A stretch of 64,000 bases of DNA from Bilabrum cf. latius (taxonomy: Eukaryota): NCBI GenBank assembly GCA_965178125.1, contig OZ237755.1, positions 248,001 through 312,000 of the forward strand, written 5' to 3'. This document shows, in pieces, positions 2,147 to 48,599 of this stretch. The position numbers and the translations under genes are program-made. Positions within the stretch are counted from its first letter, which is position 1, and the number at the start of each line of letters is the position of its first letter. Below the pieces are notes generated by a model that saw only the letters and a list, made by a program, of their open reading frames with translations, was not told the origin of the DNA and did no database searches.

Positions 2147-5100
2147 ATGCAATCTCTTCTGTCTAGCGCCGTACAGTCTGAACTGTAGAAGCGTGAACAT
2201 GAAAGGGAGCGTGATAGGATAGCGTAGCCAATTTTCCCGGGCCAGCAGCGCCTGTTTCACCGCGGCAACGACGGGGGCAAAGAGAAGACCGCCGACCCCG
2301 CAGAGTCGGTCGGAGCGGAAGCAAGCTCCTTGCTAAATGCCGCTAGATAGTCGTTTGTTGATCTTGTGAGTCCAGCGATACCAAATGCCGGGCGCGTTTC
2401 AGGCGATCCCCACATAGCCCAAATGCAGTCACCCGTACGACTTGCCTGGCCCCACCCCTTCTACATTTTGCTCGCAGATCGTGCATTTGGGAAAACCGGA
2501 GCTCGCTGAAGTGGAAGAGGCTGCTGCTGGTTCTTAGGCCGAAAAGGACGCCGCTGCAGTCGATAGGCGAATCGCGGCTTCCATGGGCTTAAGCACAGCA
2601 TCTGTGACCACAAACCTGGAATCGAAAGAGGCTGTCGCATCCAGCGACAGCAAAGCAGATCATACCGAGGGTAGTGGGTCTACCTTTCTGACGCAGCCCA
2701 GCGGCTCCGAAGCTCCGAAACCTCCGCTGCGGGGCCGTGCTACCGGCGGCGGCACCACGCCTCGCCGGCGCCATATGCACGCGGGCCTGTCAAAACTCCG
2801 GCCCGTCGGCAGCGACGAGGCCAGAGGCCGCCTGTAGCGCGCCGCCAAGTCCGCCGCCAAGGATCACGCAGTTGCAAATCGAACCCCTTGGCCGGAAGGG
2901 CAGCTCCAGCGCCTGGAGGAGTGGTTCGACGGCACGCTCAGTGGGATGGTGCGCCTTCGAGAAGCCATGTTCCACCGGGCCATGACGAGTACTATGCAGG
3001 AGGAGCACAAGCGGGTCACGGAGCAGTACGCGAAGAGGCTGGAGGACGCGCAGCGCAGGCGGGAGGCCTCCGAGAAGTTGGCCGACGCACTGCAGGCACG
3101 GCTGAGCAGGCGGTCGAGGGTGTGGGCGAGCGAGAGAAGCGATCACTACAGGCGGCTGCTGGCCATGCACGAAATACTCCGGCGGTCCGGGATCAAGTAC
3201 GACGAGGAAGCCGTGCAGAGGATCATGGATGGAGCCGCGGCTGCCGCTGCTGCCGCTGCCGAGGCTGAGAATGACGATGACGATGAGGGCTTGCTGAGCA
3301 CGCTGTCATCTGCGGGGGGAGATCGACACGCTGAAGGAGGCAGCGGGGGCGAAGACGGCAGGAGCAGCGGCCGGGACTCTGGGCAGGACGGTGCCTCTCG
3401 TCTGCAGGCCCTGGCCATGCGCCCCGCCGTCTCGCAGGAGGAGGCGGCGAGGAGACAGGCAGCGGGCCGGGAGATCGTGCGTCTCAAGCAGCTGCTGGCT
3501 GACACAAAGGAGAGGTGCTCGAGGCTGCAGGACGACGAGCGACAGCAGCAGCAGCGCGCCTCGGACGCTAGCGAGCGCGCCGAGGCCGCTAAGGTCCGTC
3601 TCAAGCAGCAGGACGTGGAGATTGACCAGCTCAGGACCAGGCTCAGGGAGGCGCAGGGGGCTCTCAAGGAGGCGCAGACTGCGCTGGAGATTCACGCGAT
3701 CAACGAAGAGTCCGAGGAGATGGACAGAAGGGAGAGAGAGAGCAAGATGAGGTCAAGGAGAGGCAGCGCAGCGACAGCGGCGGTTCGTGCGGCTGCTGCA
3801 GCGGCCAAGGCGGACGGCGGCAGCGGCGGCGGGGGCATGCCGCACCTGGACATCGGGGACGCCCGGTCTCCCAAGAGACCGCACCCGCCTCCAACTCCCG
3901 CGGCGGCTCGCGGGGCCCGATTAGCGCAGGGCGGTGCTGGGGGCACTGGCGGCATGGGCTCTGAGGCGATGCAGGCGGCCGGCATGAGCGCATGGATGTT
4001 CGGTGGCGTGGCCTGGGGCCGCATGCAGCGGGCGCAGGTGCAGGCCATGGTGCGTGACGGCTCCATCCAGTGGTAGTCGGCCGCGGAGGCGATCGCCACG
4101 CTGCTGGAAGAGGCCCCTCTGCGTCGGGCTGTCGCCGAGCAGATGCGCATGGACAGCGGGGCACTCCGGGCCAGCTCAGAGAGGAGCTCTGCCTCCGTGG
4201 AAGCGATGGCCGCGGGGAGGTATGGCATCAAGCAGCCCCAGGGCACGCCCAGGATGTCCGAGGCGGCCTCGAGTGCAGTGGCCAAGGGTAAGGGCCTCAA
4301 AGCGACGGGGAGCTTCCTGCTGCAAGGCGAGGAAGACGGGGCCGAGTCTGAGTACCAGGAGCTGCTGCATGCCTCTGAGGTGCTGCGAGGGCGGGTGCAC
4401 GCGCTGGAAAACGACCTGAGCGAGGCCCATGAAGTGCTGGCCAGAGAGAGGGAGGAGAGGCTGCAGGAGAAGAGACGGAGGGAGGCGCAGCTCGTCACCG
4501 AGGGCACGCAAACCACCACGGGAGACTTCGCGCAGGCTGGTATTCCCAAGGACAGCAGTAGGGACGCCCAGTATGAGGGGCCCGAGAGCTTGCAGGCGCA
4601 GCAGCGGGCAATGAAGAAGCGCAAGGCAAGAAAGGCCAAGGCGGCCAAAGACAGGAAGCGAAGGAGCTCGATGCTTGCGGCGCAGTCGTCGGGCGGCGTC
4701 GACTCGCAGGCAGCCGGTGGCATAGGGGACGGGTTGGACGGCGTGCACGACGGCGACTCGGCCGACGGCCGAGGCTCAGCTGCGGGTGGCAAGGCCGGAG
4801 CGACCTCGAAGGACGCGTCGGGCGGGACAACGACAGGGAACAAGAAGAGCGACGGGGACGACAACGACGACGATGCCGCGAGCCTCGCCTCGGAGGCTTC
4901 CCATGCCCTGTTGCACGACTTTCAGCAAGACGCCGAGACGCAAACCCCCGCGGGTTGGAGGGACGATCGAGACCCGCGCAAGACGAGGTCCCTCTTCGAC
5001 CTGGTCAAAGAGGCGCGCCGCAAGTCCAAGCTGCCAGGGGCTCATGGACTGGCCTCGTCCACCTCTCCGGGTGCGGGAGGGGCCGTCTCGCCCCCGGGCG

Positions 5101-8100
5101 GCAAGGGCAGCGGTTCCAAGCGGCGGGGCACTCGCCGGGGCACCTCGGTGGGTAAAGGCGCGGCAGCCATGACTGCAGACGCGATGGCATAGGCAGAGGA
5201 CGATCGGCGCATGCGGGCGGTGATGGAGGCGGAGGTAGGCCGGCTGCTGGCACTCAACAAAGAGCTAAGGGCGCGGACCGTGAAGCTTGCCAAAGCTGTG
5301 CAGCGGCTGGCGCTGCGCCAAGACGAGGGAGAGGAGGAGGGCATGGCGGGCGTGCTCAGTGGCTAGGACAGGCAGGCCGTGGACTTGGCGGGGCAGGTGG
5401 TGGAGGCCAGCGAAGCCAATGATGGCGGGGTGGGAGATGGGGATGGAGAGGGTGAAGGCAAGGAAGGTGAAGGCGGGCCTACTGGGGGCATGAGCGGGGC
5501 GGCGGCAGAGGTGCTGCTGGACGACATCCAGCGGCTACGGAGACGGGTAAACCAGCTCGCCACTACGCTCAAGCACGCGGGGCTGGCAGTTCCCCTGCCA
5601 GTGCGCCGGGGTTCATCCAAGAAGGAGGACGCGTAGGGGGATGGCAGCGACATTGAAGACTCGCAAGGGGCCAGCAAGCAGGCAGACAAGGGTGTATCGC
5701 GGCTGTCAGAGGACTCTCCCCAGGTAAGGATGCTGCGTGGGACAGTCAACCGGTTGCTTCTCCCTGCCCTGGGCCAGCTCCAGTCCATGCGGCACTCGGC
5801 CGACGGCAGTGGCGAAGACAGGGTCTCCACGCGGCCCGGCGGCTGGTTCGGCAGCACGGTGCAGAGAATCGAGGGGGCCCTCGGAAAGGCGCCCAAGCAA
5901 AGCCGGTTGGCCGGGCTGGGCAGCGAAGGGAAGGATTTCGCGATGTCTGCTTCGGCCGCTCTGACGGAGCTTGGGGAGGCACTGGCGGCCTGCGAGAGGG
6001 CGAGTGATGGTGCGAGACAGGCGCGGTGGAAGTGCCTGGTGCTGGCGCGGCTCGCTCTCTCGCAGGATGGTGAGTCTGGCGATGCGATGGACAGCGAGGA
6101 CGCTGAGACGGATGCTCAGCCGCACGCCCCGCCTCCCGCGGCAGCCATGCAAGTGCTCGAGCAGCTCGCCGCTGGGCTCACCAAGGGCAGGCAGAGAAAT
6201 GGCAGCGGTGCGGGCGATTCGGGGGCTGCCGGTGGTCTAATGACGATGAGCAAGCTGCCCGTGTTCGCGGTCGTTGCGGCTTCCATGCGCCGCAGCTTAG
6301 AAGCCAGCTCGGGTGCGGGCGTATCGGGCGGGAGACTGCGGGCGGCACTCGCCCACATGACCCGCATGGTGACCTCACGGGGCCGCAGCCTGGTCTAGAG
6401 GGCGGAAGCTCGTCTCCGCACCGCCGTGGTATCCATCCTTGCCGAGCCCAGCCTGTTCTCAGGGAGGTCCAGTGTGGGGAGGGGCGGGCGCCGCCGCAGC
6501 ACCGAGCTGGCCGGCGTGCCCTCAACGGATAGCCTGCGCGGAAGCGGCTCGGGTGGTCGAGGCGGGGGAACAGCGCGGAGACCCCTTCCCACCACAGCGG
6601 TACACCAATCCCAGCGCCGTCGCAGCACGGAACGACAGGGAGGTACAGTGCCCGGGCTGCCCATAGGGCAGGAGCAAGGGCAGGGTCGACAGGGCCGCAC
6701 CGCGCAGGCAATTGCCACCGCGCGCAGGGGCCCGCACCGGCTGGATGCCGAGTTCCTCGGGCAGCCGGGGGCCTCGGGTACTGCGGGCGGCGGGTGGCAG
6801 GGATCTCCAGGGGTGCAGCCGCCCGTCAGGCATGTACCATCGACCGAACGCAGCGTGTATCGGTCGGATCCTGCGGAGGCCGTGCGCAGGCAGCAGCGCA
6901 GGCAGAGCCTGGACGCAGACGGGAGGCCGAAAGAGCGGCCGACAGCAGTAACATTAGGGGCAGGCGGCGGGGGTTTTGGTGGTGCCGGTGGCAACGACTA
7001 TGGCTACAGCCCTCAGCAGCAGTACTCAGGATCTGGCAGCGCAGGCCGAAGGCACTCGCAAGATGGTAGCTACATCGACGCGTCTGGCCGCCGGCGATCC
7101 GACGCGCTAGGCACTTAGGGCGCACCCAGCGTTCCCGAGATGATGGACAGAGCGAGGCGCGAAGGGCGGAGGCAGAGCATGGGCGGGGGTTTCTCGGCTG
7201 CGGCCGCGAGGCAGAGGAGGCCAGGCTCCGAGAGGCCACGTGGAGGCGTCCCCGGCCGGTCGATGATCGCTGGGATTCCCGCAGGAAGCAGTCCCATGCG
7301 GCACCCTGCCCCCGTTGTGCGTGATGTGGCCACTGTGCAGCCTGGACAGCAGGGCCAGTACGCGGGAGCTCATCACTAGGGCACTCACGGTGAGTACCTT
7401 CCTTCCTAGTACGGCGAGGGCGGCCCACCGCCGGCAGGTGACAAGTACTATCAGCAACAGCATGGCCGTGAGCAGCAGTCCCACCAGCAGCACCAGCAGC
7501 AGCACTCGCGCAGCTCGCAGCACTCCCGCGGCAGCTCGCGATCTGGCAGTCGGGAGCGCTATCACGGGCATGGGCATGTGGCGCATGCGGGGCACGCAGC
7601 CGCCCCCTCTCGCTTGGCCCCTGCCCAAGGATCCAGCGGAGCGCACCACCTGGACGTGGGCCCCGGTGTGGCGGGCGGATCAGCCGTGCTCCCAGGCTCA
7701 GAGAACATCATCTATCAGGCTGCAGACGAGATCGACCTCCAGCGGAAGCAGCTGGCCGATGCAAACGCAAGGCGAGAGAGGGCACTCAGGCAGAGGCAGG
7801 AGGCGAGGAGGGCAAAGCTCAGGAGGACGCAGAGGAGGGTGTATGAGGCAAAGGGGACAGAGGCGCAGGCCAGGCTGCGAGGACGGACCCCGCCGGAGGA
7901 CCAGCGGCAGCACCCGCAGCAGTACGTCGTTGGTGCATCCGAAGCAACGCAGAAGAGACAAGAGTACCGGTCTCCCGGGAGGACGGGCCCAGGGTCAGCC
8001 CAGCACACGCAGAGCTTCTACTAGAGCAGGGACATGGGAGGGCCGCATGCCCCCGCTCGTATGGATCCTAGCCTCAGCTTCCGGTTGGACCCGCGGGAGG

Positions 8101-9218
8101 GGTACCAGGGCCACTCGCAGCTGGAGGCATCCACAGGCGTGGTCTACGACTCTGGACCTCAGGCTGGTAGGGTGCAGCAGCAGCAGCAGCAGCAGCGCAG
8201 GAGCCGCCAGGTGCTGGAGAGGGGCCGCGCCCCCCTTCGGAGCTCGGGTCACCTGCAGCACGCCGGTTCGCAGGCCTTCGTTTCTGGCCAGTCTTCCATG
8301 ACTCATCATTAGCAGCAGCACCAATAGGCTGGCGGCAACTCTCCCATGCATCGCGCCTCCACCTCGGTGCCCCGCGCTGGGATCAGCTCAGCGAGAGGGG
8401 AGCGCGGGCCTGGCGTGCTTCAGGCCGTGCGGGACGCAGACCAGAGGCACGAGCTGCAGGGGACCGTGCCTGGCTCAGGGGAACTGGCCGCGCCATCCTT
8501 CGTGGAGGCGTTTTCCTCTCTGGGCCATGACGTGGCGGGGGCACCCAGCAGGAGGGGCAGGGACGCAATCCCGTCCTCACCGCAGGCCGCTGCCGCGACG
8601 AGATCGAGGGCACGGGCACAGACACATGCACGCACTCGTCACACGGGTAAGGGCGCACTACGGGCCCCCGCAGGCGGCGGGGTGGACGACAGGTTCACCC
8701 CGATGGGGCTGAGCGGCGGCGGTCTCAGGACGGGCCCCGCAGGCGTGGGCCCGCTCCGGTCCCCCCGTCAGTCGGGGTCAGGTGCGGGCCGTGGAGGCAA
8801 GAGCAGCAGCTTGACGGCCAAGGATGCGCTGGGGGTGGGCACGGGCATTCAGAGCGGTGCCACTCCGCAGGGCGGTCGTGGTCGGCGGCTGCGGAGGGGG
8901 TCTCAGGAGACGGCGATGGAGTTCAGGCTCCGGCAGAGCCTAGAGAGGACGGAAGCCGAGGTGGTGCGCGACGGACGCAGGCGCATGTCTGGGCAGGCCA
9001 TGATCTCGGCCCAGTCGGCAGTGCAGGGGCAGGGACAGGGGACGGGCCGATCGGTGCATCGCGCGGGGGTGGCGGCAGTGAGCCGCACGAGCCCACAGGG
9101 GTCTATCTCCAGCCATGGCGGGGAGGTGGCTGGCTGGGGTCAGGAGGGTGCCCAGGGAGGCGGCATGGTGAACGGTGGTCGGTTGGATGGGGCATCGCAC
9201 GCCTCTGTGCCCCGATGA
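2147..9218 (+). CDS. Very large (~2,300 aa) coiled-coil / low-complexity protein of unknown function; join(2147..2365,2478..9218)
   Basis: ORF-track pieces starting at 2583, 2946, 4143, 5379, 5730, 6426, 7140, 7578, 8034 and 8346 share one frame and are separated only by TAG. Ends TGA 9216-9218. GTGAGT...CGCAG phase-0 intron at 2366-2477. 16 in-frame TAG. Start could also be ATG 2108. Confidence 0.75.
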
Positions 9219-9303: not shown

Positions 9304-11892
9304 TCAGTCGTACGCCACAAAGGGCGCGTCGTCCGACGCGTAGCTCACGACCGGTGTCTGGTACGGCAGGGGCACTGGCACCACCAGGCACCCGTCGGCA
9401 GCCACGCCCGCCTTGACGACTGCCTGACACCCCGGATGGAAGGCAGGCAACATCCTCACGTACCTCGTGGCATCTCGCAACGTGGCAGCGTCTGCCACCC
9501 TATCGAGAGCCATCGACATGGAGGGGCTAGCGTCCTGGTCCAAGTCAACTTCAACGAACCCGGGTGGGATGGCTCTGCCCGCGCTGGTGCTGGTGCTGGT
9601 GCTAGACCCTCCGGGTGACGAGGACGATGACGAGGACGAGGACGATAAGGAGGACGATGAGGAGGAAGACGAACTCGAGGGTGCTGACGCATGCCCGCTT
9701 GCTGCTGATGAGTCAGCTTCTGCTGCTGCCCCTGCCCCTGCCTCTGCCCTTGGTGCTGGTGGGCCGTGCCTCTCGATGAGCAGTTTACCCCCTGGCTGCG
9801 GCAGCTGGCACGCGAGTGGTCTCAGCTGGCCCCGCTCCACCGACCCGACCGCTGCCCTTCTCCTCCTCACAAACACCCGAATCGCGTTAGCCATGGACGC
9901 AGGGGTCACCAGTACACTGGCCTCGAAGGACCTCGGCTTGGCGGTGGCAGTACCCCAAGCAGACCTGCTGATGTTGTGCGAGCCCATCGAGCAGTACCGG
10001 ACCTCGAGCAGCGGCGCTTCATCCTCCTCCTCCTCCTGCTTCTGCTTCGAACTACCTGAGGTGGAGCGAGAGCCCGGCAGAGAGGCAGCACTGGATGCGG
10101 CGAGTGCTGCACCCGCGCCCTCCGTGCCGATCTCACGGCCGGCCTCGTCCACTTTGACCACCTCTACGGGAGGCCCAGAGTTGGCGGCAGGCGTGCAGGC
10201 TGCTACGGACACCTGTCGGAAGCTGGCCATGGTCTTGATGTGCCCGGGCAGCCGTCCCAGTCCTGGGGTCGCAGCCCCCCAGCGATGCAGCAGGGGCCGC
10301 ATCTCCTGCACCTACCTCCGTCCTGAGGGCAGGGAGCTCCCGGTCACTTCATAGCCAGCATAGGACGCCGCCATCGTGGATCGGGTGGGCCAGACGATCG
10401 ACAGCGGCATGCCCGACGCTGCGTCCGAGCCATGGCCCCTCTTGGCACCGCCCGCTGACCTGCCCGCCCCCATGAACTTGCCCGCACTGGAGCTTTCCGA
10501 GCCGCTTGCAGATGATTTGTGATGGTCGCCCGCCGGTCCACCCTTCGACCCAATCCCAAACCCATCACCTTTGCGTCTCTCCCCATCCAGGATGCGCCTC
10601 GTTCTTTCGGCATGACCCCGAGGTGCCCCCAGCATGGCCAGCACGCTCTCAGGGGGATGTCCTTTGTTGCCCATGGAGGCGAATGAACTAAACTGCGCCA
10701 CGTACGTCACCGTGGCAGCGACCTCGAGCTCGGAAGGATCCCTACCCGACGGTGCTGGCGTCCCGGCGCTGCTCTTTGGCCTTGTCTCCGACCTTTCTGC
10801 GTTCCCTCGCGCCCGTTTCTACCCTATATGAAGGGCACCCCAAGGGGGGTGAGCGGCAGCAGGAGCAGCAGCAGGCAGCTTCTCAATGGCCGACCCGAGC
10901 GGTGAAGCAAATGGGCCGGGCCGTGGGTGAGCGACGCCCGCACTACCGCCGCTCAGATCCAGTTCGTCTGCTTGCAGGCAGGCGAGCAGCCGGCGGGCGC
11001 CCCACCTGCTCTGGGCGTGGCCGCTCGCCCTCACGTTGTCCACGGACCCCACGAAATGGGCGCTTGCCCCTGAGAAATCAACCCGGTCCAAAAGCGGCAG
11101 CACCCATTCCCCTGCTTTGACGGCCGTGGATGCCCTCCATCCTGCGTCTTGAGCCATGCGGTCTGCGTGCTGCCTGCGCTCCTGCTCGGTCCACCATGGC
11201 TAGGGAGCCCCGCAGGTGGCCCGCAGGTAGTCCCTGAGAGGGCCGCCGAAGATCTTCTCTCCGTAGGAGGTACGGGTCCTGGCGTCTGATTGGGCCCCCG
11301 ATTGAGATGCTGCTCTGCCGCGGGATGCGTGGGACGTGCCCATGCGTGCTCGTTTCTTTGGCGATTCAGTCTAGGCCTCTGCGCCTGCCGGCTCAGGAAA
11401 TATTGGAAAGTCTTGCCAAAACACTCCCTAGCACAAACACGTCAGGTCGCGGACTAGAAGATTTGCAGTTAGCACGATGATGCGAACCGTTCTGTCGTAC
11501 TTCAAGACAAAAAGCTTCGTGTGATGCTTCGCGTACGGTGATGTCAGCCGGATTCCCTCGCAGCTCCATTGGAACGACGCGCCGGGTGCCACACGCTCAA
11601 GAACGTGTGACATCTCTCGCGCGTACTCAGGAGGTAGCACCATGCTGACTTGTTCTAGAGAAGTTGAATGCTGGAAGACAGGGACCATTGCAATCTCAGG
11701 GTCAACCATAAAATTCACGACAAGCAGCGACCTGAGCGACTCGTTGGGTGGACTAGAGCAAAGCAGGTCTGATAATGACGCACTCATGCGTCCCTGTGCC
11801 GCGGGATCCCGGGGCTTATCTTTCAAAATCGCTGGATTCAACATCAGTTTGAAAGCGGAGGGCGCCTCTCGCACTCCTGTTGAATGGTCCAT
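9304..11892 (-). CDS. TDP1: Tyrosyl-DNA phosphodiesterase 1 (PLD superfamily)
   Basis: Motifs in correct order: NFMVD, HHTK, TANL..D....(TAG)GVFWQDFP, DFS, WG..RL, QFSS, IVWPT, HIKT, GSHNISRSAWG, SFEASVL, PLPY. One frame with TAG at 11428, 11371, 11200, 10819, 10312; ends TGA 9304. True start uncertain (possible acceptor near 11898). Confidence 0.92.
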
Positions 11893-19626: not shown

Positions 19627-19666
19627 GCTGAAAATCAGTAGGCAAACCTCACCAACGGCACCTGAA

Positions 19667-33943: not shown

Positions 33944-36900
33944 ATGAGTATGAATCAAAGATCTACACCGCTAGCTGGGGCGCGGATACGCATCGGAGTC
34001 TGCGCCATGGACAAGAAAGTGAGTGCCTACTGCTTAGCTTTGCAACAGCCAATGACTGCTGCCAGCCATGCACACGTAGAGCTCTCACGGACCTCGCGCC
34101 CCGTATTTGCAGGCACGAGGTCGACCAATGACTGAAATTCTCAGCAGGCTTCCGCGGGATATTTTCGATGTGGTGATCTTTGGAGACGACACGATTACCA
34201 ACGAACCGATTGAATCTTGGCCAGTCGTCGATTGTCTCATCGCTTTTTTTTCGGCCGGCTTCCCTCTCGCGAAGGGAATTAGGTATGTTATGCACAGGCG
34301 GCCGTACTGCGTCAATGACCTCACCTATGAGGTCATGATGAGGGATAGGCGAATGTTCTACAGCTAGCTGAGCCTCTGCGGCGTCCCCGTACCGAACCAC
34401 GTCGTGGTTTCGCGAGATGGACTCGGCGAGATGTGTTCGTAGCCCATGGAATGCGTGTCGGCCGCACTGAGTCGCATCGAGGCAGGCGACAAGGAGCTCA
34501 TCGGCATGTCGTGGCTCCGCGACCAGATTGATGCCATGGCGCGCGATGAAGCCGGCCCCCCCAGATCACCCAGCCCGACGGGTCACGGTAACAGGCTGTC
34601 GAGCTCACCGAGCGACCACCGCGCCATCTCTCCGAGCGGAGAGCCCGAGCTCCCTGCCGTCACGGGCACGGAGGTGGGCGGGCCTGGAGATGCGGGGTTG
34701 CCGATGCTGCCCACCAGCGGCAGCGGCAGCGGTTCGGCGGGGGCGGGTCCCGCGCCATCCTCTGCGGCCACGACCGCCAGTCAGACTTCCTCGCAGAGCG
34801 TCCCGCCGAGCCGCGCTCCCGATGGCGAGCTGCAGGTGTGGGAGACCGAGGACTGGCTGCAGGTGGGCACCCAGCGCATCTACAAGCCTTTTGTGGAGAA
34901 ACCCGTGGACGCGGAGGACCACAACGTGAGGATCTATTACCCCAGGAGGATGGGAGGAGGGTGCAAGCACCTCTTCCGCAAGCGCAAAGACCGCTCCTCG
35001 GAGTTCCGGGAGCACCAGTGGCGAGTCCGCACCAGGGGGTCCTTCATCTACGAGGAGTTCCTGTTGACCCAGGGGACGGACATCAAGGTGTACGCGGTGG
35101 GGCCGGAGTATGCGCACGCAGAAGCTCGCAAGAGTCCAGCGGTGGACGGGATCGTGTAGCGGGACAGAGACGGCAAGGAGCTTCGCTTCCCTATCATGCT
35201 GACGAGGGAGGAGAAAGAGCTGGCCAGGAGGGTGGTGCTCGGCTTCCGGCAGAACGTGTGCGGGTTTGACCTGCTGAGAACACCCCTCGGTAGCTATGTC
35301 TGCGACGTGAATGGGTGGAGTTTCGTGAAGAAGAGCGCAAAGTACTACGATGACGCCGCCTCGGTGGTGGCTCTCCTGTGCGCGAGGGCAGCCCGGGGCG
35401 CGTCCGCGCGAGCCGCGCCCGGTGCTGGTGCCTGGATTCTCTCCTCCCCCAGAGCCGGTCCCTCGCTGGCCATGAACCACGTGAGCCCCTTAGACGAGGA
35501 GCACCCGGGGCAGCTCCCGCCCGCCCTGCATGGGGAGGCGCAGCCCCGGTCAGGGGAGGGCGCGTCGGTGCGGCAGGCAGCCACCGCCGCTCTCGGAGGA
35601 GCCGCCGGCGTGGATGCCCCGGGCGCTGGTGCTCTCCCCGGGGCACCCACCAGCATCGTCGACATGCTGGAGGAGGCGGTGCAGCGGCGCGGCCGCTCCG
35701 CCAGTATCAGCGAGACGTCCAACGGCGACGAGGAGCTAAGGTGCGTGATCGCAGTGGTGAGGCACGGAGACAGGACACCAAAGCAGAAGCTCAAGATGAG
35801 CGTCAAGTCCCCGGCGTTTTTACAGCTCCACCGGCGCTTCGCGTACGGTCCCCGTAACGAGGCAGTGCTGAAGACGGCTAGGCAGCTACAGATGGTGCTG
35901 GATGCCGCCAGGCTGCTGATCGCCAAGACGGAGCACGCGGGAGACAGCGACTCTGACGGAGAGTACGAGAGCATCCGGAGATTGAGGTCGCTGAGGGCCG
36001 TTCTGGAGATGGGCGGCGAGTTCTCCGGTATCAATCGCAAGGTCCAAATCAAGCCCGTCAAGTGGGAGAAAGTCCCGAGGATGTCTGACGAGGACCGCAG
36101 ATCGTCTCTGCAGTCCCTTGTGGAACACTCCCCGAGAGGACCACCAGTGGCGGGGACTGGAGCCGCTGCAACGGCCGCGGTACCTATTCCAGACGGAAGA
36201 ACCACCCCGAACAGCGCCACTGGCAGCAGCGCTGGCAGTAGCAGCGGCGGTGGCGGTGGCCCAGGTACTGTGCCTGGCACGGTGAGCTTCGGGATCGGCG
36301 GGGGCGTGCCCTCTGCGCGGCGCATGCCGTCCGATGGATACATAGGGCTGTCAGGGATGGGGTCGTCTCCCGGCTCTTCCTCTGGGTCCAGACCCCCAGT
36401 GGGTGGAGGCGGGATGCCGGCACCGTCGACGGTGGGTATGGAGAGGGAGAGAGGAATCCTGGACGCGTCTGCCTCCCCTCGCCGGATCCACTCGGAGCTT
36501 TTGCGACCCGGCACCACCTCCCACCTGGAGGGGGGCCACGGGGACGAGGACGGGACGGCTGTCCCGGTGCGTAGGTCCAGCATGTCTTCGCTGGGCGGAC
36601 TCAGTCGCGGGGGGGTAGAGCACGACGAGGACATCATCGCGCACCATGGGAAAAGCGGGGTGCCTGTGGCACCGTCTGCCGTGCCTTGGCCTGACATGAC
36701 CATCGGCACCGACTAGAGTCAGGTGGGGGAGCGCACTGGCAGCAGGAGCAGGCGCAAGGGATCCAACTCCACACCACGACGGAAGCCAGGGGAGAGGCGG
36801 GTGAGCGCCGCGTCAGAGGCCACAAAGGACATACCCGACGCTGTAGTTGACCTGGGGGCTGGGAAGGAGATCCGGCGATGGGACCAGTCGACAGAGATCG

Positions 36901-39900
36901 TCACGGAGGCGGTGCTTGTGCTCAAGTGGGGCGGCGTGCTGACAGAAGCAGGCCGGCGGCAGGCCGAGGCCCTCGGTAAGCGGTTCCGTGACACGCTGTA
37001 CCAAGGTGAGTCTCTTCTTCGGCTGCACTCGACCTACCGCCACGACTGCAAGATATATGCGGCGAGCGAGGGTAGGGTGCAGATGACGGCGGCCGCGTTC
37101 GCCAAGGGCTTGCTCGCGCTGGAGGGGTCGCTTACCCCGATCCTCGCCTCGCTGGTGCGCAACTACAACACCAAGCAGCTGCTGGACGACGCGTCGCCTG
37201 CCAAGGATCTCATCAAGCAAGCCAAGGCACGACTGAGGACGGGCCTCGTACGCTCCTGGATGGGCGAGCCGACGTACGATCATGCAGGCCTGCTGTTGGG
37301 GCTACCCACTGGACTCGTGGAATCCATCGCGCCCACGCGATCTGCGTCTATGCTTGAGGCAATCCAACGGCTAGCTCCCAACCCGTTGTAGCGCCTACAA
37401 GACCTGCACGTCATGATTTAGAAGCTCGTGGTGGAAGCAAAGGAAGCTGTGCACCGCGCGCTGAAGGACGAGGTGAAGGGAGGAGACGATAGGGCCCTCA
37501 GGCTGCTGGAGGACTTCGAGATTGCATCGGAGGCGATGGGGCTGGGCATGCAGGACACCCACGGTGCTGGTGCTGCAGGGAGCAAAGAGCGCAAGGGGGA
37601 GTCAGGAGGCACAATCCCTGGCACTTACGCCGATCCGGCTGGAGCCGCTGGCGCTGTAATTGAGCACGCCAAGTCTCACGGAGGTGTGCAGATCGTCGCA
37701 ATTGCCGAGGGCACTGACGAGAGCGATGCCACAGAGCCGCCGCACCCAGAGAAATCCTAGTCCCCCAATGCGCGAGATTTAGGCGGGGCCGACAGCACCG
37801 AGGCGGCCGGGCCGAGAATCAGCCATAGCAGCCTCCCTGCGAGCGAGGGGGGCGGCAGCGCAGACCATAGCATGAGCTCGCCCGAGACCGGCCCAATGCA
37901 CGCCAGAGACTTATCCGGAAAGAAGGCTGGGGTTACCATGGGCCGCGTTGATTCGTTTGGTTCCAAGCCAGATCACCAGGCGGCCCATGTGTCTTCCAAT
38001 AGCGGGATGACGGGCTCGGTGGACTCGTTCCCGCACTCGAGCGTGCACAAGGTCATCGGGGCTGGGCTGCGAGGAGGCGTCCTGGGAAGGATCGAGGCCG
38101 AGGTGGGCACGAAGAGAACGGGAGACGGCTCCCGGAGCGCAAGCCGCGCTGACCGCAGCCCCAAGTCAACGGGCCGGGCCAGCACCTCCGCCACAGACAC
38201 GGCCCTGCTCTGGCACGACGACGAGAGTGAACACGCCAGGATTGTGGACGGCGGCCGCGAGGCCGGGGGCATGAGCATGTCCGTCTTGTCTCGCCTCCTG
38301 TTCCTCATGGGCCGCTGGTGGCGGCTCAGCCGAGACCTGCACGATCGCAAGAAGAAAAAATGGAACCTATCCAAGCTCGCAGACGTGTACGATAACTGCA
38401 AGTTCGACTGTCAGCACAACCGAGACCTCGGTCTGAAGCGGGTGGAGGACGTGTTCCAGCTGGCCGTGGCGTTCGCAGACTGCATCATCCCGCAAGAGTA
38501 TGGCGTGACCACGCTGGAGAAGAGCATGGTGGGCTGCCGCATCGTTCATCACCTCCTCCGGAAGATCTTCTTTGATCTGACTGTGCACAAGCAGTCCTGG
38601 GAGGTACGCGAGGGAGGCAAGAAGGGCGCGATGATGCCCGACCACGAGCATGCGACCGCGTCCCGCAGCTCGCCTCCCTCGGCACACGGCATCGGGGATG
38701 AGGAGAGGGCTTGGACGGCATTCCGGTCCAGCTTGGCGCAGGCGAAGCATCGAGTCAAGCAATCTGCGCTGATGACTACGGCTACTGTCGACCTAGCCGC
38801 ACCTGCAGGCACATCCCTGCCAGCAGCGCCCTCTCCGATCGTGCACGGCGATGCATCAGGAGACGGTGAACACCCAGTGGACTAGACAAGCTTGGACGGT
38901 CGGCTCAGGGCGACAGAATCGGCCGAATCGGACCCCGGTGGAAACGGCATGTGGCCCGAAGATTTTGAAGCGGACGAGGCAGCGCACCAGCTGGACTCTG
39001 CCTCGATGGCCAAGACAGGGTACGATGACGTGAACTTGATCCAGCACAGGGTGCGCACTCGGGTGTACTTCACCAGCGAGGCCCACCTCCACTCGCTCGT
39101 GAACGTGGTTGCGCACGGCGACGGGGGCCTGCGATCCACACACATCACAACCGTGCCTGGCTACGTCCGGTCGCCCACGTCCTCCCCGCGAGGCATTCGA
39201 GGCGCCAAGGGGCCCAAGAGCTTGCCCAGTGGCACTCCTCTGAGCATTTCAATGTCCAAGCCGAGGAAGAGGAACCGCAGACCGGGCGGAAGCTAGCCAC
39301 AGGATGCGGCGAACCCTGGGTCTTTGGCTGCAGCCACTGGTCCGTCTGCTTCCAAGCGATCGCCAGGCAGTGCTTTTTCATCTGTGAAGCGTGGCATTGG
39401 AGCTAGCTCTGGAGCTGGCATAGCGCAGGACACGGAGCGCGAATCGTCCGGTTCCAGGGGTCTGCTGACAGAGCGAGGGCGGCAGTACCTCGAGAGGGTC
39501 CCAGAGCTGGATTACTGCTCTCACGTGGTGTTCTTGCTCTATGAGAGGACCAATGAGCCAGTGGGATCGCCTCGCAGGCACCGTTGCGAAATCCGGCTGT
39601 CACCGGGAGCATCGTACTCCCCATTGGACGGCAAAGTGCGGGCACCTCCCACTAGCTTGACCAAGCCTATCAGGATGCAGTCCAGCAAGTCGTCTGCGAA
39701 AAGGCTGCAGCGAAGGTTCGCCACGGATTCGCCCTCCTTTGCAGGCACGACTTCGTCGTCCAATATCTTCGAATCAGCCGATGGCAGCCTGAGCGGAGCC
39801 ACATCTCCGCTTGCCCTGCCAGGTGCGGCCGCTCCCGCGAGGCTTAGCGAAGCAGAATCCCCTGTGGACCCGACTGCAGACAAAGAATAGCCGGCGGGAG

Positions 39901-40505
39901 GCACCAGCCCAAGCCTTGCGCCCAAACGCGCTCGCTCCCAGTCTGCCCGAAACCTCGAGACGCTGGGCGGCCTGGAGAACAGGGAAGACGATCGTCCAGA
40001 GACGGGCGTGTTAGCCCACTCCAGCGCTGAAACAAGGCCAGTCACTGGCGATGGGACGTCCTCGACGAGCGTGCACGACCAAGGCGCGGCGCAACCCCTG
40101 ACTGATGGCACCGGTGGGTCCTCACGAAGAATGGCACCTCGGCAGGCGGCTGGCGCGTGGAGCCAGGATCGCGTCACGTACCCCGTCACAGAGGCAGAGT
40201 AGACCGGCAACCAAAACGGCGTTGTACTTGCTCCGACTCCGCGCGCGTCGGCTGCAGAGCTGAAAAGCGGCTGCCTTCCTGTGTGTGGCATGGTGGTGCT
40301 ATCCGACGACTGCCCGCTCGGGGTGGTAGAGGATGCGCTGGCCGCAGCTATTATGGCACCGGGGGCCCCTGATCCGCGAGAGATGCGACACACTCCCGCT
40401 GGGGAGCGATTGCGCAAAGCCAACCTGAGGACGCCGAGCCTCAACATGGCTGCGGTCGCTGCCTCCTCATCAGATGGGGCCGGTGGGTCGACCAGCAAAG
40501 GCTAA
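33944..40505 (+). CDS. VIP1: Diphosphoinositol-pentakisphosphate kinase / histidine acid phosphatase (PPIP5K/Vip1); join(33944..34018,34113..40505)
   Basis: [128 protein letters not shown]. 11 in-frame TAG; ends TAA. Confidence 0.96.
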
Positions 40506-40954: not shown

Positions 40955-43900
40955 TCACTTCTCAATCTTGTCCATCCCGTCCGCACCCGGCGACCGCTGC
41001 TCGCTTCCGGACCCCCGCGTTGCTTTCGGGGTGGTCGAGACTCTGCGCTTCTGTTGCAGCGCCAGAGATACCAGGTTGGGCGTCCTCGCCCCACTACCAG
41101 GCCTCCGCGAGTGCGTCCGCCGCGGCCGAGCGAGGCGCGAGGCGCGCCTTCGGGCGAGAGGCTGGCCGAAGGTCATCGTCAGCTTGCGACGAGGCCTGGT
41201 CGTACCAGGCCCGAGCGGTGGGGGTCTTCCTGCCTGCGCGCTGTCATGCTGCTGATGCGACGGCGCGCCGGCCCTCGTCCCGTTCGTTTGTTGGCCAGAC
41301 GCGCCGGCAGATTGACGACCTCCAAGGCCTTGCCGTAACGCCTCCATCCGGCCGGCTGGTAGAGTCTCAGACCTTTCCACGAGTGAGCTGTGTGACTGCT
41401 AGCCGCGCCTCGTGCGACTGCCATCCTGTGCCTCCTTGAGTGCATGCGTGCCTGTCCCGCTCGCGTTCCTGCCGACCCCAGGGCCATTGCCGGCCACATC
41501 GCTGCCCCCGTCCTCAAGGCTTGATGCACCAGTGTGCGCGGCTCGTGAGGCTCCTGGATGGGCAGGGGACTGGCTGGGCGTCCCGGCCCACCCCACCCTG
41601 GGCGTGCGACTGAGAGCCGCGATCTACTCCAAGTCAATGTTGGCTTCGTGGGCCTTGCCTGTGGTCCACATGTGCTCCTTGATGTCCTGTACTGTGGCTC
41701 GCTTGGAGGGATCAGGATGCAGCGCCTTGAGAATCAGATCCACGAGTGCAGGCGAGAAGTGGCCGGGGAAGTAGAACCGCCCGTCAATGATCCCTCCGCC
41801 GTGACCATCTCCGTCAGCGACGTCGATGTCCTGCTAGCTCTCAGGCGTGCCAGGCAGTCCGTCAATTACCTAGTCCTTTCTGGCACTGGGTGTGCTACCG
41901 TCAGCAGTAACACCACCAACTGCATCTGCCTTGACTGCGCGCACCCCATTGGCCGGCTTTCCGCCGCGTACTACATCTGCACCGTTGGTCCCAGTGGTTC
42001 CTGTGCCTGTTTCTGCTGCACTAGAAGCAGCTGCAGATCCAAGCTATACGCTCCCTCTAGAGTTGCGGTTGCCCGAGTAAGACTGCTGCAGATCAGAGCC
42101 CACCGACCGGGGAGTATGCAAGTCATTTTCTGTGGCTTGGACGCGATGGCCGGCTGGCCCGCGACTGCTGGTCCCAGCAATTCTGGGAGGCACCGAAAGG
42201 ATGCGGGTAGGCTTGTCGCCGGGAATGCTGCACTCCGAGTCGGCCCGACCCTTCCCTGTGTCCTTGTTGCCAGCACTAGTAGCTGCCGGAGCAGAGGTAT
42301 CTCGTGGGAGCCCGCTGGTTGGCCCCGACGAAATGCCCTCAGAGCTTGCCTTGACGGCTCCCAATGAAGCCGGCCCAACTGGCGGGCCCATGCTGCCTTG
42401 TCCTGCCATATCAAGGGCCGCTGCCTCTGCTCGGGCCGCGTCCTGATCGAATTGAGCCTCTTCATGCTCCGTCTCCAGGATGGCACGGCCTCCGAGCTCC
42501 TCTGCCTACATCGGACCATCGTCCCGGTCTTGAGTCATGGACCTGCTTTCGTGGCTCGCCACACTAGATGCATCGCCGGTCTGGCTATCCCCGTCCACGC
42601 CTGCGACCGGACTTCGATCCTCCCCCACATTGACGTCGGGGTGGCCGCTCATTCCACCATGAACTGGGTCCAACTCGTCTGCGTCGGCGCTAGCACTGGC
42701 AAGGTTCGCAACATCCGGATCATCTGCATCTTCATCCCCTTCGAATCGCATGCTGGACGTTTCGCTGTCCCCGTCACCCGCAAGCGTAGATGCGCGAATG
42801 GAAGACATCTGAGGCATGACATCGACTCCAGCGGCCCGCTCTAGCTGCTTGCGGTCCAAGGGTGTCACCACCAGCGCAGGACCTCCGTCACCACCAGACT
42901 CGCCGGCATGCGGGCTCGGGCCAGATTCGTCGTCCTTGTGCGCTGTGCTATCCCACATCTCTAGCACATCAGGAGCCAGGTACCCCGCGCCTCTGGAGCT
43001 GCTGCCGCGATCTTCCAGCCGAGCAAATGCCTGCTCGTCCTCGCCATCATCCTCGCCCTCGCCATGCACTAATGTGGGATCGTCAGGGCCATCAGCCGCA
43101 GTCCCTGAGCTCTTGCTCCTCCTACGGCTGCCTTCCCTGCGTCTTGCAGACTGTTCCCGCGCTGGCATCCTGGGCAAACTCCCGCGCTGACCTGACCGCC
43201 GCACAGGCCTGCTCCCCAGCGCAGTTCTGGCCTTCTTGCTGGGGGGCTCACCATATCGCGCTCCTGCCGTGCCGCTGTCTTTGACTGCAGGGTCGATTGC
43301 GCCAGCAACCATTTCCACTCGCTCGGGTGCGCCTTGAGGTCGAGGCCTTGGCCTCTTCTTGCCGGCAACTGGCAAGAAGTCCTCCGGCTGGTAGCCCCTG
43401 TCCTTGATCGCATTCAGACCGTGCCTCTGGATGTGCAGAATGAGGCCCTTGTGCCAGCCTCTCCTGCGAAGCCTCACTTCCAGCTATCGCGGCGTGCTCT
43501 GACGGCTGCGGGCACTGCCTGGCGTATCCACCTTACCAGGCTTGGGTGTGTAGCTGGACGCAGTGCGACTCCCGTGCGACTACGAGCTGCCACCAACCTC
43601 CACCGGATTACTGGCCGCCCGTCCCCCAAAGGCTTTGCTGGCAGCTGCAGATACAAGGCCGAGACTAGGTCCTGCACTCGATGCTTGCCAACCAAAACCT
43701 ACCCGTGACGCGGATGAAATCGCCTCTGCCAACAGCTGGTCCTTGCGCCTGCCCTAACGCTGCGGATTTCCCATGGCACGGCTGGCTGACACAAGCCCAG
43801 AGCGCCCCCCCGTGGTTCTGTTGAATCGAGTGCCACCTGAGTGCGTCGACGAACGCACGAGCTGCGGCGGCTTCGCGCTCATAGCGGCGTCGTTGTGCAA

Positions 43901-46900
43901 GTCAGGCACCTCACCACCATCAACCCTGCCCTGTCCTGCATCTCGCTGCGGGGTCTACCTCCCCTTGATTCGGAGCTGGGCAACTCCCTGCGTACCTTCG
44001 GTGTTGCGGGTGCTGGATGCGCTTGCTGGTCCCTCGCTGGCTTGAGATTTGGACGCAGACGAGCCTGGGGCCCGGATGGTCAACGAGGGAGGACCTGGCT
44101 ACGGCTAGTTGACATCTCCACCAGGGCCAGATGCCGCCGCTGAAGAAGAGGACGATGATGACGACGCTGCAGACGCATCCGACGGCCTACCAGGTACAGA
44201 AATCCGCAGCTGCAGTCCGAGCGGAGGCCCGGAGAACCCCGAGATGTCAGCAGCACTGCCACTCGAATCGTCTAGCTAGGCCCCAACTACTGACGGGCTC
44301 CTGGCCTGCACGTCAACAGGAGGTACTCCCGCCATGCCCGATCCGTCGAACAGGCTCGGACCGGGGGACGTGTCCTTGCTGCGAGACGTGCCTGGCTTGG
44401 CAATGGAAAGGCCCATAGAACGGCGCGGCGTGCTGGCTCCACCTCTAGACCGACCCAGGCTCAGCGGGGTCGGTCGCTCGTTGGCCTGCGCGCCTGTTAC
44501 TCCAAGCGGTGACAAGTCGCTGCCGAAGCCAAGCCCGGCGGGGCGTCGCGCCGGGCTCTGCGGTGGGACAGCCTCTACAACCGGTGGCTCATCCTGCTCA
44601 ACCCTCACTGCCGCCATGTCCTGTGCTCGGCTCGCACTGCGGGATGACGTTTGCGCGCCTCCAGTTGCCGAAACAGCTCGGCCATCATCGTGTTGATGAG
44701 GCCACGCCGAGCCCGAAGCACTAGACATCCGCCCTGTCTCGCTGGACGGTGATAAGTAACCAGACTGCCCGCGCATGGGAGGCGACTCGTGTACGTTCTC
44801 CCCGTCCTGCATCATACTGTCTTTGCGACGGCTGAACCGCGTCGATGGCGTCGTGGACTGGGCACCTCCACGGGAATGAGGCCTCCCGGAGTCACCGCCA
44901 TCTTCCCTGTAATCGTCTACGCTGTGCTGCTCGAGGTGCATTTGCTGCTCCCTGCGCTGTTGCTCAGCAAGGACGCCGGGCTTTGCATGCGTCAACATCG
45001 GAGTCTCGCCGCCGCCATCGTCTTCAAACTAAGCCATCATGCCATATCCGCGCTGCAATGCATCCGTCTCAGCATCGCGGCTGGAAGCACGGGCGCGTGG
45101 TTGGCGACTCTGCGGATCTAGCCACTCCGGATAGTATGTCTGAATGAAAGCAGCGTACTTGGGGTCTGTCATTTCCGCAGTGTCCCATGGCACGCAGTTG
45201 CTGGCTACCACGTACAGCAGCACACCGCACGACCATGCATCAGCACGGAATCCATCGAATTCCAGCGAGGGCCTGTGCTCCGCTTTGCAGACCTCCGGGG
45301 CACTATAGGGAGGGGTGCCGCCGGTATAGGTGGTAGTCGCCTTGACTGAGCCCTTGTTGACGAGAGCACAGCTGCCGAAGTCGGCCAGCTTGGCTCGGGC
45401 TCGCAACGTGTCCACCTGCGAGCCGGAGCTCTCGTTCAGCTCGCTCCTGTCCACTGTTTCGTCATCATCTCCTTGTCCATCCAATTGGTCGCTGTCCTCG
45501 CGGTGATTCGAATTGGCGCGCGGGACTGACTCTCGCTTGACTACCGGGCTCTCGCCCAATCCCATCGCTACAGGCGTCAGGTGCGAAGCCGATCGAGCAG
45601 TGGAGCCTGGAGTGGATCCGCTGGCGCTACCATCCCGGTCCACGGACCCGCCTGCTCCACCTCCGCCGTGGTAGTCGCCGCTCGCAATCAGCAGGATGTT
45701 CTCCGGCTTGATGTCCAGGTGAGCGATGCCAAGCGCGTGGCAGTCGCACAAGCAATCGATGATCTGCCTAAACACGTGGCACATGCCAGCCTCAGTCTGC
45801 GCACCCTGGGCGTGGATGACCTGGAACAGGTCAACATCGCACAGCTCCATCAGCAGCAGAGTGAACTGGTCCACCTGAACGGGAGGAAATGTCTGCAAGA
45901 CGTGACGCCTAGACTGGATGCCCTCGAGTCGCAACCTCTCGTATGCGCGCAGCTCTTGCTCCGCGGATCGGCGCTCGTAGTCGGTCTGTTCCAACGGCAT
46001 GGCCGCCATCGGGTAGCCATCAAGTGCCGCGTCTTCGCGGTCATGATCCGCTGCATCCATCGCCGCCTCAACATTGGCCCTCTGCGCGACGTAGACCTTC
46101 ACCGCAACCTCTTCATCCCCATTCATGGCTTTGTAAACGTGCCCCTGCCCTCCTCTGTTGAGCAGGCGCAGCAGCGTGATCCTCTGCCTGTACTGCTTTA
46201 GGACATTCTGCATCGTTTCCATCTCCTCCTGGACGACCTCGGGGTCTTCTTCCTCGCGGTCGGGGTCCTGATCTGCGGCCACTGCTCCCATGTCTAGCTG
46301 CAGAGACATGCCGGCAACACCTTCGAATTGCCCTGTTGGTCGGCTATTCTCCGTGTACACAATAGGCTCAGCTTGCCCTCTATCTCGTTCGTTCTCCCCT
46401 ATGGCTCCACCAGTCGGCAGGACAGAAAGGTGGGCATCTGGAGTGCTACCATCAAGAGGGAACCGCCCATCTGGGTCACCGCGAAGCTCTCCAGCGCGAG
46501 TAAAATTGCCATCATCATGCGCAGACGCCCGGCCCCGTCGCATGGGAGACCATCGCGAGGTCGGGGTGCTGGCCATCACGCTCGCACTGCCGCCGCTCTC
46601 CTGCCTCCCAGTCTCTGCAACCATGGGTGGGGACGGGCCTGCAGCCCTGTCAAGTCCAGCGTCCCCGCTTCGTTCGCCTTGGCTCGATTCCAACAGAGGA
46701 GGCCGTCCATACGCGTCCTCGAAGCCGTCCTCTCGTTCGCTATCCGAGCCAGACATGTCCTCCTGCTGCTGCCCCAATGCTGCACCCGCTCTGCGCTATG
46801 CCGGCTGCCCCTGCCCGAAGGAAGGCGGAATCACGAGAGCGCTTCTGCTGCGGGAGGCCCGGGGCGGGCCCGACTGGTCCACCGCCGTGTCCTCGTCCTC

Positions 46901-47878
46901 GATGAGACCGCCTAGTCCTGGCCCTTGCCTCTGCCCTGCCAACCTCAACCTCGCTGCTCTGGGGCGGATTCTGGGCCCAGATCCGGGATACGATCCGATC
47001 ACAGCCGGTAGAAGTGCCTGCGACTCTGTGCCCAAGCTCAGCTTGCTATCATGCATCTACACGCTATCCTGCGGATCCGTTCCAGGTGCAACCTAGGCAT
47101 GGCTGGAGGAGGATGCCGAGGAGGAGGAAGACGAAGAGGAGGATGCGCCCATTGTGCCGGGTATGTACCTGCCCAATGGAGCCTGCAGTCCTGCTTCGGC
47201 AGCATGCTGGATGCTGGGTGAGGCGCTCCTGTACGGGATGGAGGCGTGTCCCATAGGCGAGTCGCCCAGTCTCGCATATAGAGAGGGCGGTTGGCCTCGG
47301 CTTCGCATGCCACCGCCGCTCGAATGAGAAGGCATGATGCCGCCGATCTCCTGCATGGGCACCTACCGGCTTTGATTGCTCGCTGCGTATGCCCTCCTGT
47401 TCTCTCGTGCAGTTTCCCCTCCTGCCCGAGCAGAGTGCCAGGGCGAGAGGAGGCCTAGGGTGCCCTCCTCGGAGCCGCCAGGGCGACTACCTTGGGGAAC
47501 AGAGCCGGGGGATTCATCGGCGACTCCAGTCAAAACCTAAATTCCCGAGCTGCTTGGGGTATCTTGCCGGCGCATGTAGCTTCCTGTTGAAGCAGAGCTT
47601 GAGCTGCCGGCGGGACGGCTGGCCTACCCCACTGGAAGATCGGAGTCAAAGTCGTCGGCCCCTTGGTCTGGAGATAAGATGCGAACGCTCGGGCGCATAC
47701 CAGATCGTTTTCTGTTACGATCCGCCGCTGAACCACGGACTAGGACCCCCCTAGGCATGCTGCCGTCGGATCCAGCTGGAACCGAGTACTTTCGGGCTGA
47801 AGAGGCGGAACTTGAATCTCCCGAGGCAGCGCCAGGGAGGGGGTTTCCTCTAGCATGGCGATCCTATCGATCTTGCAT
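40955..47878 (-). CDS. Giant (~2,300 aa) Ser/Thr protein kinase (CAMK-like) with huge insertions in the catalytic domain
   Basis: RGGQGHVY, VAVK, HLDIKPEN, LADFGS, GTPPYSAPE and DAWSCGV at ~45200-46170; FSPALVDLILKALHPDPSKRATV...HMW at ~41666-41780. One frame from ATG 47878 to TGA 40955 with about 20 TAG and no TAA/TGA. Confidence 0.85.
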
Positions 47879-48599
47879 TTGTATTGTATACTTCGGCGAA
47901 GTGCCCTAGCTCCTGTGGGAGGGCGGCCTGCTATCCTAGCTTTGCTATTCGGGAGTCCCGTCAACTGGGCTGCCGCTCGAAGATTCGGCCATTTCCTCCT
48001 ACATGCCTGCAGAAATTATGATGCAATCTATTTTAGATATACCGGGTGCATATTGCTCGAACTGTATGTGTTGCGGAGTGGGTGGACACCAGGTACCAAA
48101 TCCGATCTGGTCCAAACGCGAATCCAATGCCAGAATCGTGAATTCAAGTACAGAAGCACTGCGTAGCACCAGACCAAATTGATATTGGCAGCACTCTGAA
48201 GCAAGATTGCCGTTCTTACCTTATATAGTAGTCGGAGGGACTTGGGTCATTCGACTGGCTACAACACAACCATCCTGTGCGGCAAACAAATCAGCACTGA
48301 ACAGGCACCGACAATTATGCTTGAGAAGTATGTGTTCAATACACTCTAGTGAGCAAAATAACAACAGAAGCCTCACAGCACTGATCCAGCGTGACTGAGC
48401 AATCGGATCGCGGGGGCACCGTCGCATTTTGGTTCCGCAGCAAGCCGGCAGTTTTAACCGGCGCCGCGCAATCCAAACGATTTCGTGGTTGTTGTATTGA
48501 GGCAGATCACGATTGATTGGTAGCTCTACTAAGTACACTACATCGGGGCATGCCTCATGACTATCCGAATGATGGCTACCACCCATGCCAACCGCGTCC

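Follow-up and report, generated by a model that had tools for sequence, protein, structure and literature searches.

The nuclear genome studied here very probably uses a variant genetic code in which UAG is translated as glutamine (Gln), and UAA and UGA are kept as stops. We draw on a 64-kb stretch of DNA (64,000 nucleotides; hereafter the window) and on the assembly that contains it (48.6 Mb, 111 contigs). Judged from conserved protein positions, these sequences show TAG to be a third, GC-poorer Gln codon in the gene for tyrosyl-DNA phosphodiesterase 1 (TDP1), in dynein heavy chains and in other genes.

TDP1 occupies positions 9304..11892 of the minus strand. With TAG taken as sense, it forms one open frame of 862 codons that contains five TAGs but neither TAA nor TGA and is terminated by a TGA at 9304..9306. 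Its ATG start is putative, with similarity to the copy on L075, a metagenome contig discussed below, setting in at codon 6. The original prediction read the minus strand as HHTK...TANLLVRDLTCLC-TAG-GVFWQDFP with the TAG at 11428..11430, which we could reproduce from the sequence. It also assigned this TAG to the conserved Gln of TDP1 and, indeed, a gapless alignment places it opposite the Q of human KTQGIW. A check set beforehand asked for a Gln-dominated column. Here, we find Q in 119 of 134 TDP1 homologs, the rest being N (9), E (2), D (2), P (1) and a gap (1). These 134 are the sequences with a first HxK-type motif among the best 150 of 256 matches (16 without the motif were dropped), and since the search query carried Q at the TAG site, the set is slightly biased towards Q. 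The 256 matches stem from a full-library search; a word-index search with TDP1 gave no match. Residues just 5' of the TAG are conserved among the homologs as well (Asn in 133/134, Asp in 128/134).

As the alignment with human TDP1 is gapless from His263 to the TAG, the latter corresponds to Gln294. This numbering was counted from His263 and cross-checked on Asn283 and Asp288, both named in PMC5509001; according to the same source, Gln294 of the human enzyme hydrogen-bonds the second catalytic histidine, His493. Both HxK motifs of TDP1 are present and align to the human protein (HHTK...TAN and HIKT...SHN; all on the minus strand): the first catalytic motif HHTK (His263/Lys265 equivalent by human alignment) at 11515..11526, the TANL motif with the Asn283 equivalent (from homolog columns and human alignment) at 11458..11469, the second catalytic motif HIKT (His493/Lys495 equivalent) at 10231..10242 and SHNIS, aligned with the human TSANLS stretch, at 9967..9981. 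The second catalytic motif lies 3' of all five TAGs, i.e., a stop at 11428..11430 would cut it off, as had been foreseen. The remaining in-frame TAGs are found in a poorly conserved stretch (11371..11373), at a position where L075 likewise has TAG (11200..11202), inside an insertion (10819..10821) and directly 5' of the second catalytic region (10312..10314).

With TAG read as Q, the frame scores 126.7 bits against the Pfam family Tyr-DNA_phospho (PF06087; curated cut-off 22), spread over three stretches. The respective values are 120.4 bits for X and 119.3 bits for Y, and the piece 5' of the TAG alone reaches 46.2 bits. If UAG is Gln, TDP1 would then be a normal enzyme of full length whose position 294 is occupied by Gln, and the genome-wide decoding presented below concurs with this residue. 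A single-sequence structure model of the protein was unusable (pLDDT 34.9). Contigs from runs X2 and X3 are identical to the window over 9679-12077; they possibly derive from the source sample and are thus not independent. Upstream of TDP1, positions 12050-12500 of the window hold a repeated element with about 10x the contig depth of its flanks and a divergent second copy.

The other genes of the window show the same pattern. Its 11 long genes (14,492 codons) contain 90 TAG, 469 CAG and 127 CAA codons in frame, and neither TAA nor TGA. The convergent neighbour of TDP1 (2385..9218, plus strand; 2,277 codons, 14 TAG, no Pfam match) is syntenic in L075, and between the two copies TAG is swapped with CAG or CAA. 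A PPIP5K-like gene (34068..40505, plus strand; 2,145 codons, 12 TAG) ends on TAA, i.e., TAA is still a stop, and a protein kinase gene (40955..48004, minus strand; 2,349 codons, 25 TAG) ends on TGA. The gene of a ubiquitin-domain protein (12854-15313, plus strand; GC3 0.81) uses TAG for one of its 31 Gln codons, in line with an avoidance of TAG in biased genes. Further genes are located at 17089-17919, 19625-24664, 49072-51885, 52234-53688, 53884-56295, 59565-60581, 61318-62655 and 62838-63998; they comprise SCO1, two LRR genes, a glycosyltransferase 61-like, a Mur ligase/FolC-like and a kinesin gene, a dual-specificity phosphatase-like gene and a GH116 glycosidase. Most of them carry in-frame TAGs; the GH116 stretch has none. 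No tRNA genes were found in the window.

With regard to the whole genome, we studied dynein heavy chains based on 10 kb from each of 19 genomic places. All but one of these stretches (18/19) consist of one frame each, none shorter than 3,259 codons; the remaining one (L042) breaks into two frames and was omitted. The 18 frames together contain 263 TAG, 2,164 CAG and 374 CAA codons, again without any TAA or TGA. For decoding, each codon was scored from the columns of the other dynein paralogs, which provided 182 TAG sites. The respective log-likelihood (lnL) for TAG is positive for Gln (+57.3) and negative for both Glu (-46.1) and Tyr (-313.9). As a control, all 61 sense codons were assigned correctly (61/61), and Glu is the runner-up for CAG and CAA too. 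Among paralog-conserved columns, the consensus is Gln for 11/25 TAG, 13/28 CAA and 125/203 CAG codons; here, TAG is similar to CAA and lower than CAG.

We also compared one dynein (L045) with 120 outside homologs, counting columns that are at least 70% conserved. Nine of its 22 TAGs are within such columns, of which seven are Gln and two are Glu columns. Six of the seven Gln columns are near-invariant (e.g., 111/111 and 119/120), and the two Glu columns show Glu in 107/111 and 90/120 of the outside homologs. When six other dynein paralogs were compared with the same references, which are non-orthologous to them, a weaker signal was observed (Gln at 9/21 conserved TAG columns). TAG use also follows codon bias: its share drops with rising GC3 (rho -0.82, 18 genes) and goes up with the use of CAA, as expected of a minor synonymous codon. 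The dyneins with the lowest GC3 (L050, L051, L053 and L054; 0.54-0.69) hold the most TAGs (28-48 per 3,300 codons). UAG is present in frame at conserved Gln columns of both TDP1 and the dyneins, as in a code of the NCBI table 15 type.

Next to its sense reading, TAG does not appear to be used as a stop. Of the dyneins, 12 were covered to their 3' end; all of them terminate at the conserved C-terminal motif, nine on TGA, three on TAA and none on TAG, so that TAA remains a stop. A code in which both UAA and UAG are Gln (UAR=Gln; NCBI table 6) was considered and rejected, since in-frame TAA is absent from the 18 dynein frames as well as from the 11 long genes of the window, and TAA ends genes. 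Also the context-dependent stop/sense type of Condylostoma and Blastocrithidia does not agree with the 0/12 dynein ends on TAG. Instead, UAA and UGA are absent in frame and are used as gene ends, again as in table 15. In a set of 59 frames from 325 kb, the coding score is 0.067 after the last TAG (n=40), 0.078 after the last CAA (n=51) and -0.158 after the terminal stop (n=59); DNA beyond the last TAG thus still looks coding, unlike that beyond the stop. These frames cannot end in TAG by construction, i.e., rare TAG stops would be missed. No TAG depletion towards the 3' ends was found within the last 200 codons of this small sample of 59 frames.

A candidate decoder is available. A tRNA gene with CUA anticodon (69.8 bits) is found at G000:C23:907607-907679 (L002); its sequence folds into an ordinary cloverleaf with a run of T after it, and genes on the same contig contain TAG. 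The label 'Pyl' given by ARAGORN was dismissed, as it is merely the default name of that anticodon. Further searches of the genome found no second copy, and none of 6 pattern matches in the genome is a UUA tRNA. One CUA tRNA gene without a UUA counterpart is what a table 15 type code calls for, in a survey that is incomplete, with scores for 63 of the 780 candidates of the Rfam tRNA search. An exact search with the arm pattern of the CUA tRNA gave no match in viral or prokaryote contigs, so that, at this strictness, nothing points to a donor among viruses or bacteria.

Within this genome, the nearest tRNA to the CUA tRNA is not a tRNA-Gln. Over the whole length, it is nearer to tRNA-Tyr(GUA) (50/73 identical positions) than to either of two tRNA-Gln (43/73 and 44/73). 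With tRNA-Tyr(GUA) it shares 12/14 acceptor and 8/10 anticodon-stem bases as well as C1-G72; with tRNA-Gln(UUG) it has all 8/8 D-stem bases and G73 in common. The stems were compared against 25 nuclear tRNAs. Restricted to the 5' strands of acceptor and anticodon stem, the match to tRNA-Tyr is 10/12 and to all others at most 6, and among 289 unrelated tRNA pairs the highest value is 9, seen in two pairs. Given 25 comparisons, we consider the likeness of these stems to tRNA-Tyr suggestive, and we put forward the hypothesis that the CUA tRNA originated from tRNA-Tyr. Eukaryotic tRNA-Tyr is recognized via C1-G72 and A73, and in E. coli a drift to Gln is reported for amber suppressors that carry U35 or G73 (both PMC9976931); the Gln elements of E. 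coli include G2-C71, G10, U35 and G73 (PMC1483225). All four listed E. coli elements are present in the CUA tRNA (U35, G10-C25, G2-C71, G73). Gln charging is not evident from its sequence as such, which is nearer to Tyr overall and carries C1-G72; we infer Gln charging by glutaminyl-tRNA synthetase (GlnRS).

From this, a mechanism can be proposed. A duplicate of tRNA-Tyr(GUA) would have become an amber suppressor through one anticodon change and then acquired Gln identity via A73G and a Gln-type D-stem, with Tyr-like acceptor and anticodon stems retained. Glutaminyl-tRNA synthetase would charge this tRNA, which would decode UAG and spare UAA, as C34 of its anticodon pairs with G and not with A. 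If a suppressor was recruited to Gln identity in this way, what the codon means would have been decided by the capturing synthetase rather than by the tRNA of origin. In addition, the release factor eRF1 is expected to have lost most of its response to UAG. The respective gene (L031:1376-1902, G000:C35), with putative exon borders placed at GT-AG, retains GTS, E55, NIKS, S70 and YxCxxxF, and it differs from human by N30D and S60V. It holds two in-frame TAGs itself, one opposite human Gln44 and one opposite Leu69 (Gln in PDB entry 8ip8). Both are within the stop-recognition domain and one closes a putative exon. A feedback loop through these TAGs is conceivable; two TAGs are about what is expected from codon use.

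The host can be assigned to the bicosoecid stramenopiles based on a dynein. The closest named match is Cafeteria roenbergensis (67%), with other named organisms at 60% or less among the 120 matches listed. In a FastTree phylogeny, the organism's dynein is sister to the Cafeteria clade (support 1.0). This tree represents one gene and 36 sequences (the query, the top 20 and 15 further named ones of the 120) with 1,230 columns from pairwise alignments, i.e., the membership in Bicosoecida is a one-gene placement beside Cafeteria. A Cox1 search gave one named match (Saprolegnia, 78%) and no placement.

The code is apparently not restricted to this species. The metagenome contig L075 (8,858 bp) stems from a different one, given that it encodes the same gene pair with 41-47% identity. 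Its two genes contain 4 and 25 in-frame TAGs and end on TGA and TAA; at the equivalent of 11428..11430 it has CAG within a continuous frame. For 38 aligned sites with TAG in either species, the partner is CAG or CAA in 13 cases, TAG in 2, a Glu codon in 5 and never a Tyr codon. By these comparisons, the L075 species is read with the same code. In the databases, its TDP1 frame is found as pieces (proteins P0122, P0123 and P0186) that are cut at TAG. Another protein, P0125 (36%), terminates exactly before the conserved Gln; known from its protein only, it is a hint at a third species with the same code. L075 is one of 15 metagenome TDP1 loci, the other 14 of which have no in-frame TAG in the stretch read.

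Alternative explanations of the in-frame TAGs are all improbable to varying degree. UAG could have a dual role, i.e., be mostly Gln but end translation in particular contexts or genes, as in an ambiguous intermediate. The classic recognition motifs retained in eRF1, the single CUA tRNA gene found and the scarcity of TAG in high-GC3, probably highly expressed genes would agree with this. We nevertheless consider it highly improbable, since TAG is found at none of the 12 dynein ends and, within the limits of the frame set given above, the coding score holds after the last TAG without any 3' depletion. Even less probable is a reading of UAG as another residue. Tyr is proposed by the tRNA, with its Tyr-like acceptor stem (C1-G72 included) and anticodon stem, and Glu by the two conserved Glu columns that hold TAG in L045. 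Both are rejected by the profile decoding, Tyr by far the most clearly. Furthermore, no Tyr codon is opposite any of the 38 sites aligned with L075 and the CUA tRNA carries G73 where the Tyr determinant is A73. Glu, on the other hand, is also the runner-up for the true Gln codons CAG and CAA.

A standard code with TAGs removed at the RNA level, either by U-to-C editing to CAG or within small introns ending in TAG, is on indirect evidence a very remote option. It is true that the site at 11428..11430 (TAG|G with a CTGAC 5-mer upstream) resembles an acceptor. But the residues just 5' of it are conserved and the L075 frame is continuous there with CAG, which makes splicing across the site unlikely. 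Editing is unlikely given that TAG use tracks codon bias and that the genome has a CUA tRNA. In general, RNA-level removal would have to deal with hundreds of TAGs and not a single TAA or TGA in frames of more than 3,000 codons, without a fixed flanking base. Finally, nothing more than the stop itself speaks for a TDP1 pseudogene or an assembly error. Every catalytic motif of TDP1 is intact, the X2 and X3 contigs (possibly from the source sample) show the same letters, and dyneins, eRF1 and DNA polymerases as well as a second species show the same pattern. We reject this explanation, which has a negligible probability, based on the genome-wide pattern.

The resulting codon table is identical to NCBI translation table 15 (TAG=Q), which renders the TDP1 site as Gln; the label of that table refers to Blepharisma nuclei and some phages and not to stramenopiles. 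The UAR=Gln code, known from Tetrahymena, diplomonads and ulvophytes (PMC5304391, PMC11687900), shares UAG=Gln but also has UAA=Gln, which is a stop here. Close in kind is the nuclear code of Iotanema spirale, a fornicate with likewise UAG=Gln, UAA as stop and a CUA tRNA as predicted decoder; there, the tRNA was not identified and is predicted to derive from tRNA-Gln(CUG), and eRF1 carries T32G (PMC5304391). In contrast, we deal with a bicosoecid stramenopile in which a CUA tRNA gene was found that is Tyr-like in two stems, and in which the GTS of eRF1 is intact. Only UAG was reassigned to Gln also in the nuclei of the ciliates Hartmannula sinica, Trochilia petrani and Protocruzia tuzeti, with the suppressor tRNA undetected in H. 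sinica and T. petrani (PMC11687900). Leu-type CUA tRNAs described in the same paper differ from the CUA tRNA here in that their nearest counterparts are tRNAs for the amino acid they carry themselves. In E. coli, engineered amber suppressors, i.e., CUA tRNAs of other families, can be captured by GlnRS and insert Gln (PMC9976931, PMC1483225). These are laboratory constructs facing a bacterial enzyme, whose rules may differ from eukaryotic ones, whereas we propose a natural and fixed change.

Within the sources consulted (PMC11687900, PMC5304391, PMC10553269), UAG-only Gln codes are reported for Iotanema, Protocruzia, Hartmannula and Trochilia, and other UAG/UAA splits for a rhizarian, Scotinosphaera and further ciliates. 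This amounts to about 8 nuclear splits, four of which are UAG=Gln and none of which is from stramenopiles. Similarly, the available text of PMC12153298, PMC11412368, PMC13466520 and bioRxiv 10.64898/2026.06.25.734631 contains no stramenopile nuclear case. Our literature searches, which covered few subscription journals, turned up no bicosoecid or other stramenopile with a changed nuclear code, so an earlier report is possible. A rare code that was known already has apparently arisen independently here, in a major group new to it.

The closest named relative, Cafeteria roenbergensis/burkhardae, is GC-rich and intron-poor with mitochondrial UGA=Trp; in the available text, a non-standard code is mentioned for its mitochondrion only (PMC6972860), and the annotation gives its dynein as a complete protein of 4,210 residues. 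Since the Cafeteria code is apparently standard and its dynein annotated full-length, the code change probably took place after the split from Cafeteria. Low GC was not the driver, given a GC-rich genome (mostly 55-69% in the window).

The nuclear separation of UAG from UAA is rare. Here, it can be studied with a contiguous genome, an eRF1 with few differences from human, a near relative with apparently standard code and a candidate tRNA gene to hand, the latter being reported for none of Iotanema, Hartmannula and Trochilia in the text available (PMC5304391, PMC11687900). Together, these make it testable how eRF1 ignores UAG yet reads UAA and UGA, and from where the tRNA came. On the practical side, annotation with the standard code fragments this genome as well as related metagenome contigs, as exemplified by the L075 TDP1 pieces.

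Cafeteria relatives are model hosts of giant viruses and virophages, such that the effect of recoding on host range can be asked. If this scenario holds, the host code would act at translation as a barrier against giant viruses and virophages that use the standard code. Among 11 matches to protein-primed DNA polymerases (PF03175) above the cut-off, TAG occurs in 8, up to 11 times, and TAA and TGA are absent; examples, known from the search output only, are found at G000 C12:912949-914379 and C22:753827-754438. This suggests that Polinton- or virophage-like elements follow the host code. Taken jointly, a first stramenopile nuclear recoding, a tRNA-Tyr suppressor captured by GlnRS and Polinton/virophage-like elements on the host code as part of a virus barrier form a tentative scenario, to which we give a little less than an even chance of being right in all its parts.

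The mitochondrial contig (G000:C111; L070-L073) spans 38,401 bp with 24% GC, has a UCA tRNA and follows table 4, i.e., UGA=Trp, as likewise observed for Cafeteria and Cafileria (Cafeteria: PMC6972860). Its plus-strand frames of at least 80 codons end on TAA in 30/31 cases, and the single TAG end looks spurious. Should the CUA tRNA be imported, it may be important that mitochondrial genes avoid TAG as a stop.

Two 18S genes with 77-83% identity are present in the assembly, namely a 1,700-nt gene in an array on G000:C12 (L035) and a single 1,802-nt gene at G000:C95:6099-7900 (L034). The latter, on a contig of 17.9 kb, likely belongs to another eukaryote, i.e., a contaminant, which we take to resemble dinoflagellates. 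Several near-identical tRNA genes with CAT anticodon are found on G000:C3, C5, C7, C9 and C25 (L022, L056, L060, L067-L069); their acceptor and D arms are like those of the Pro(TGG) tRNA, and they possibly represent a tRNA-derived repeat.
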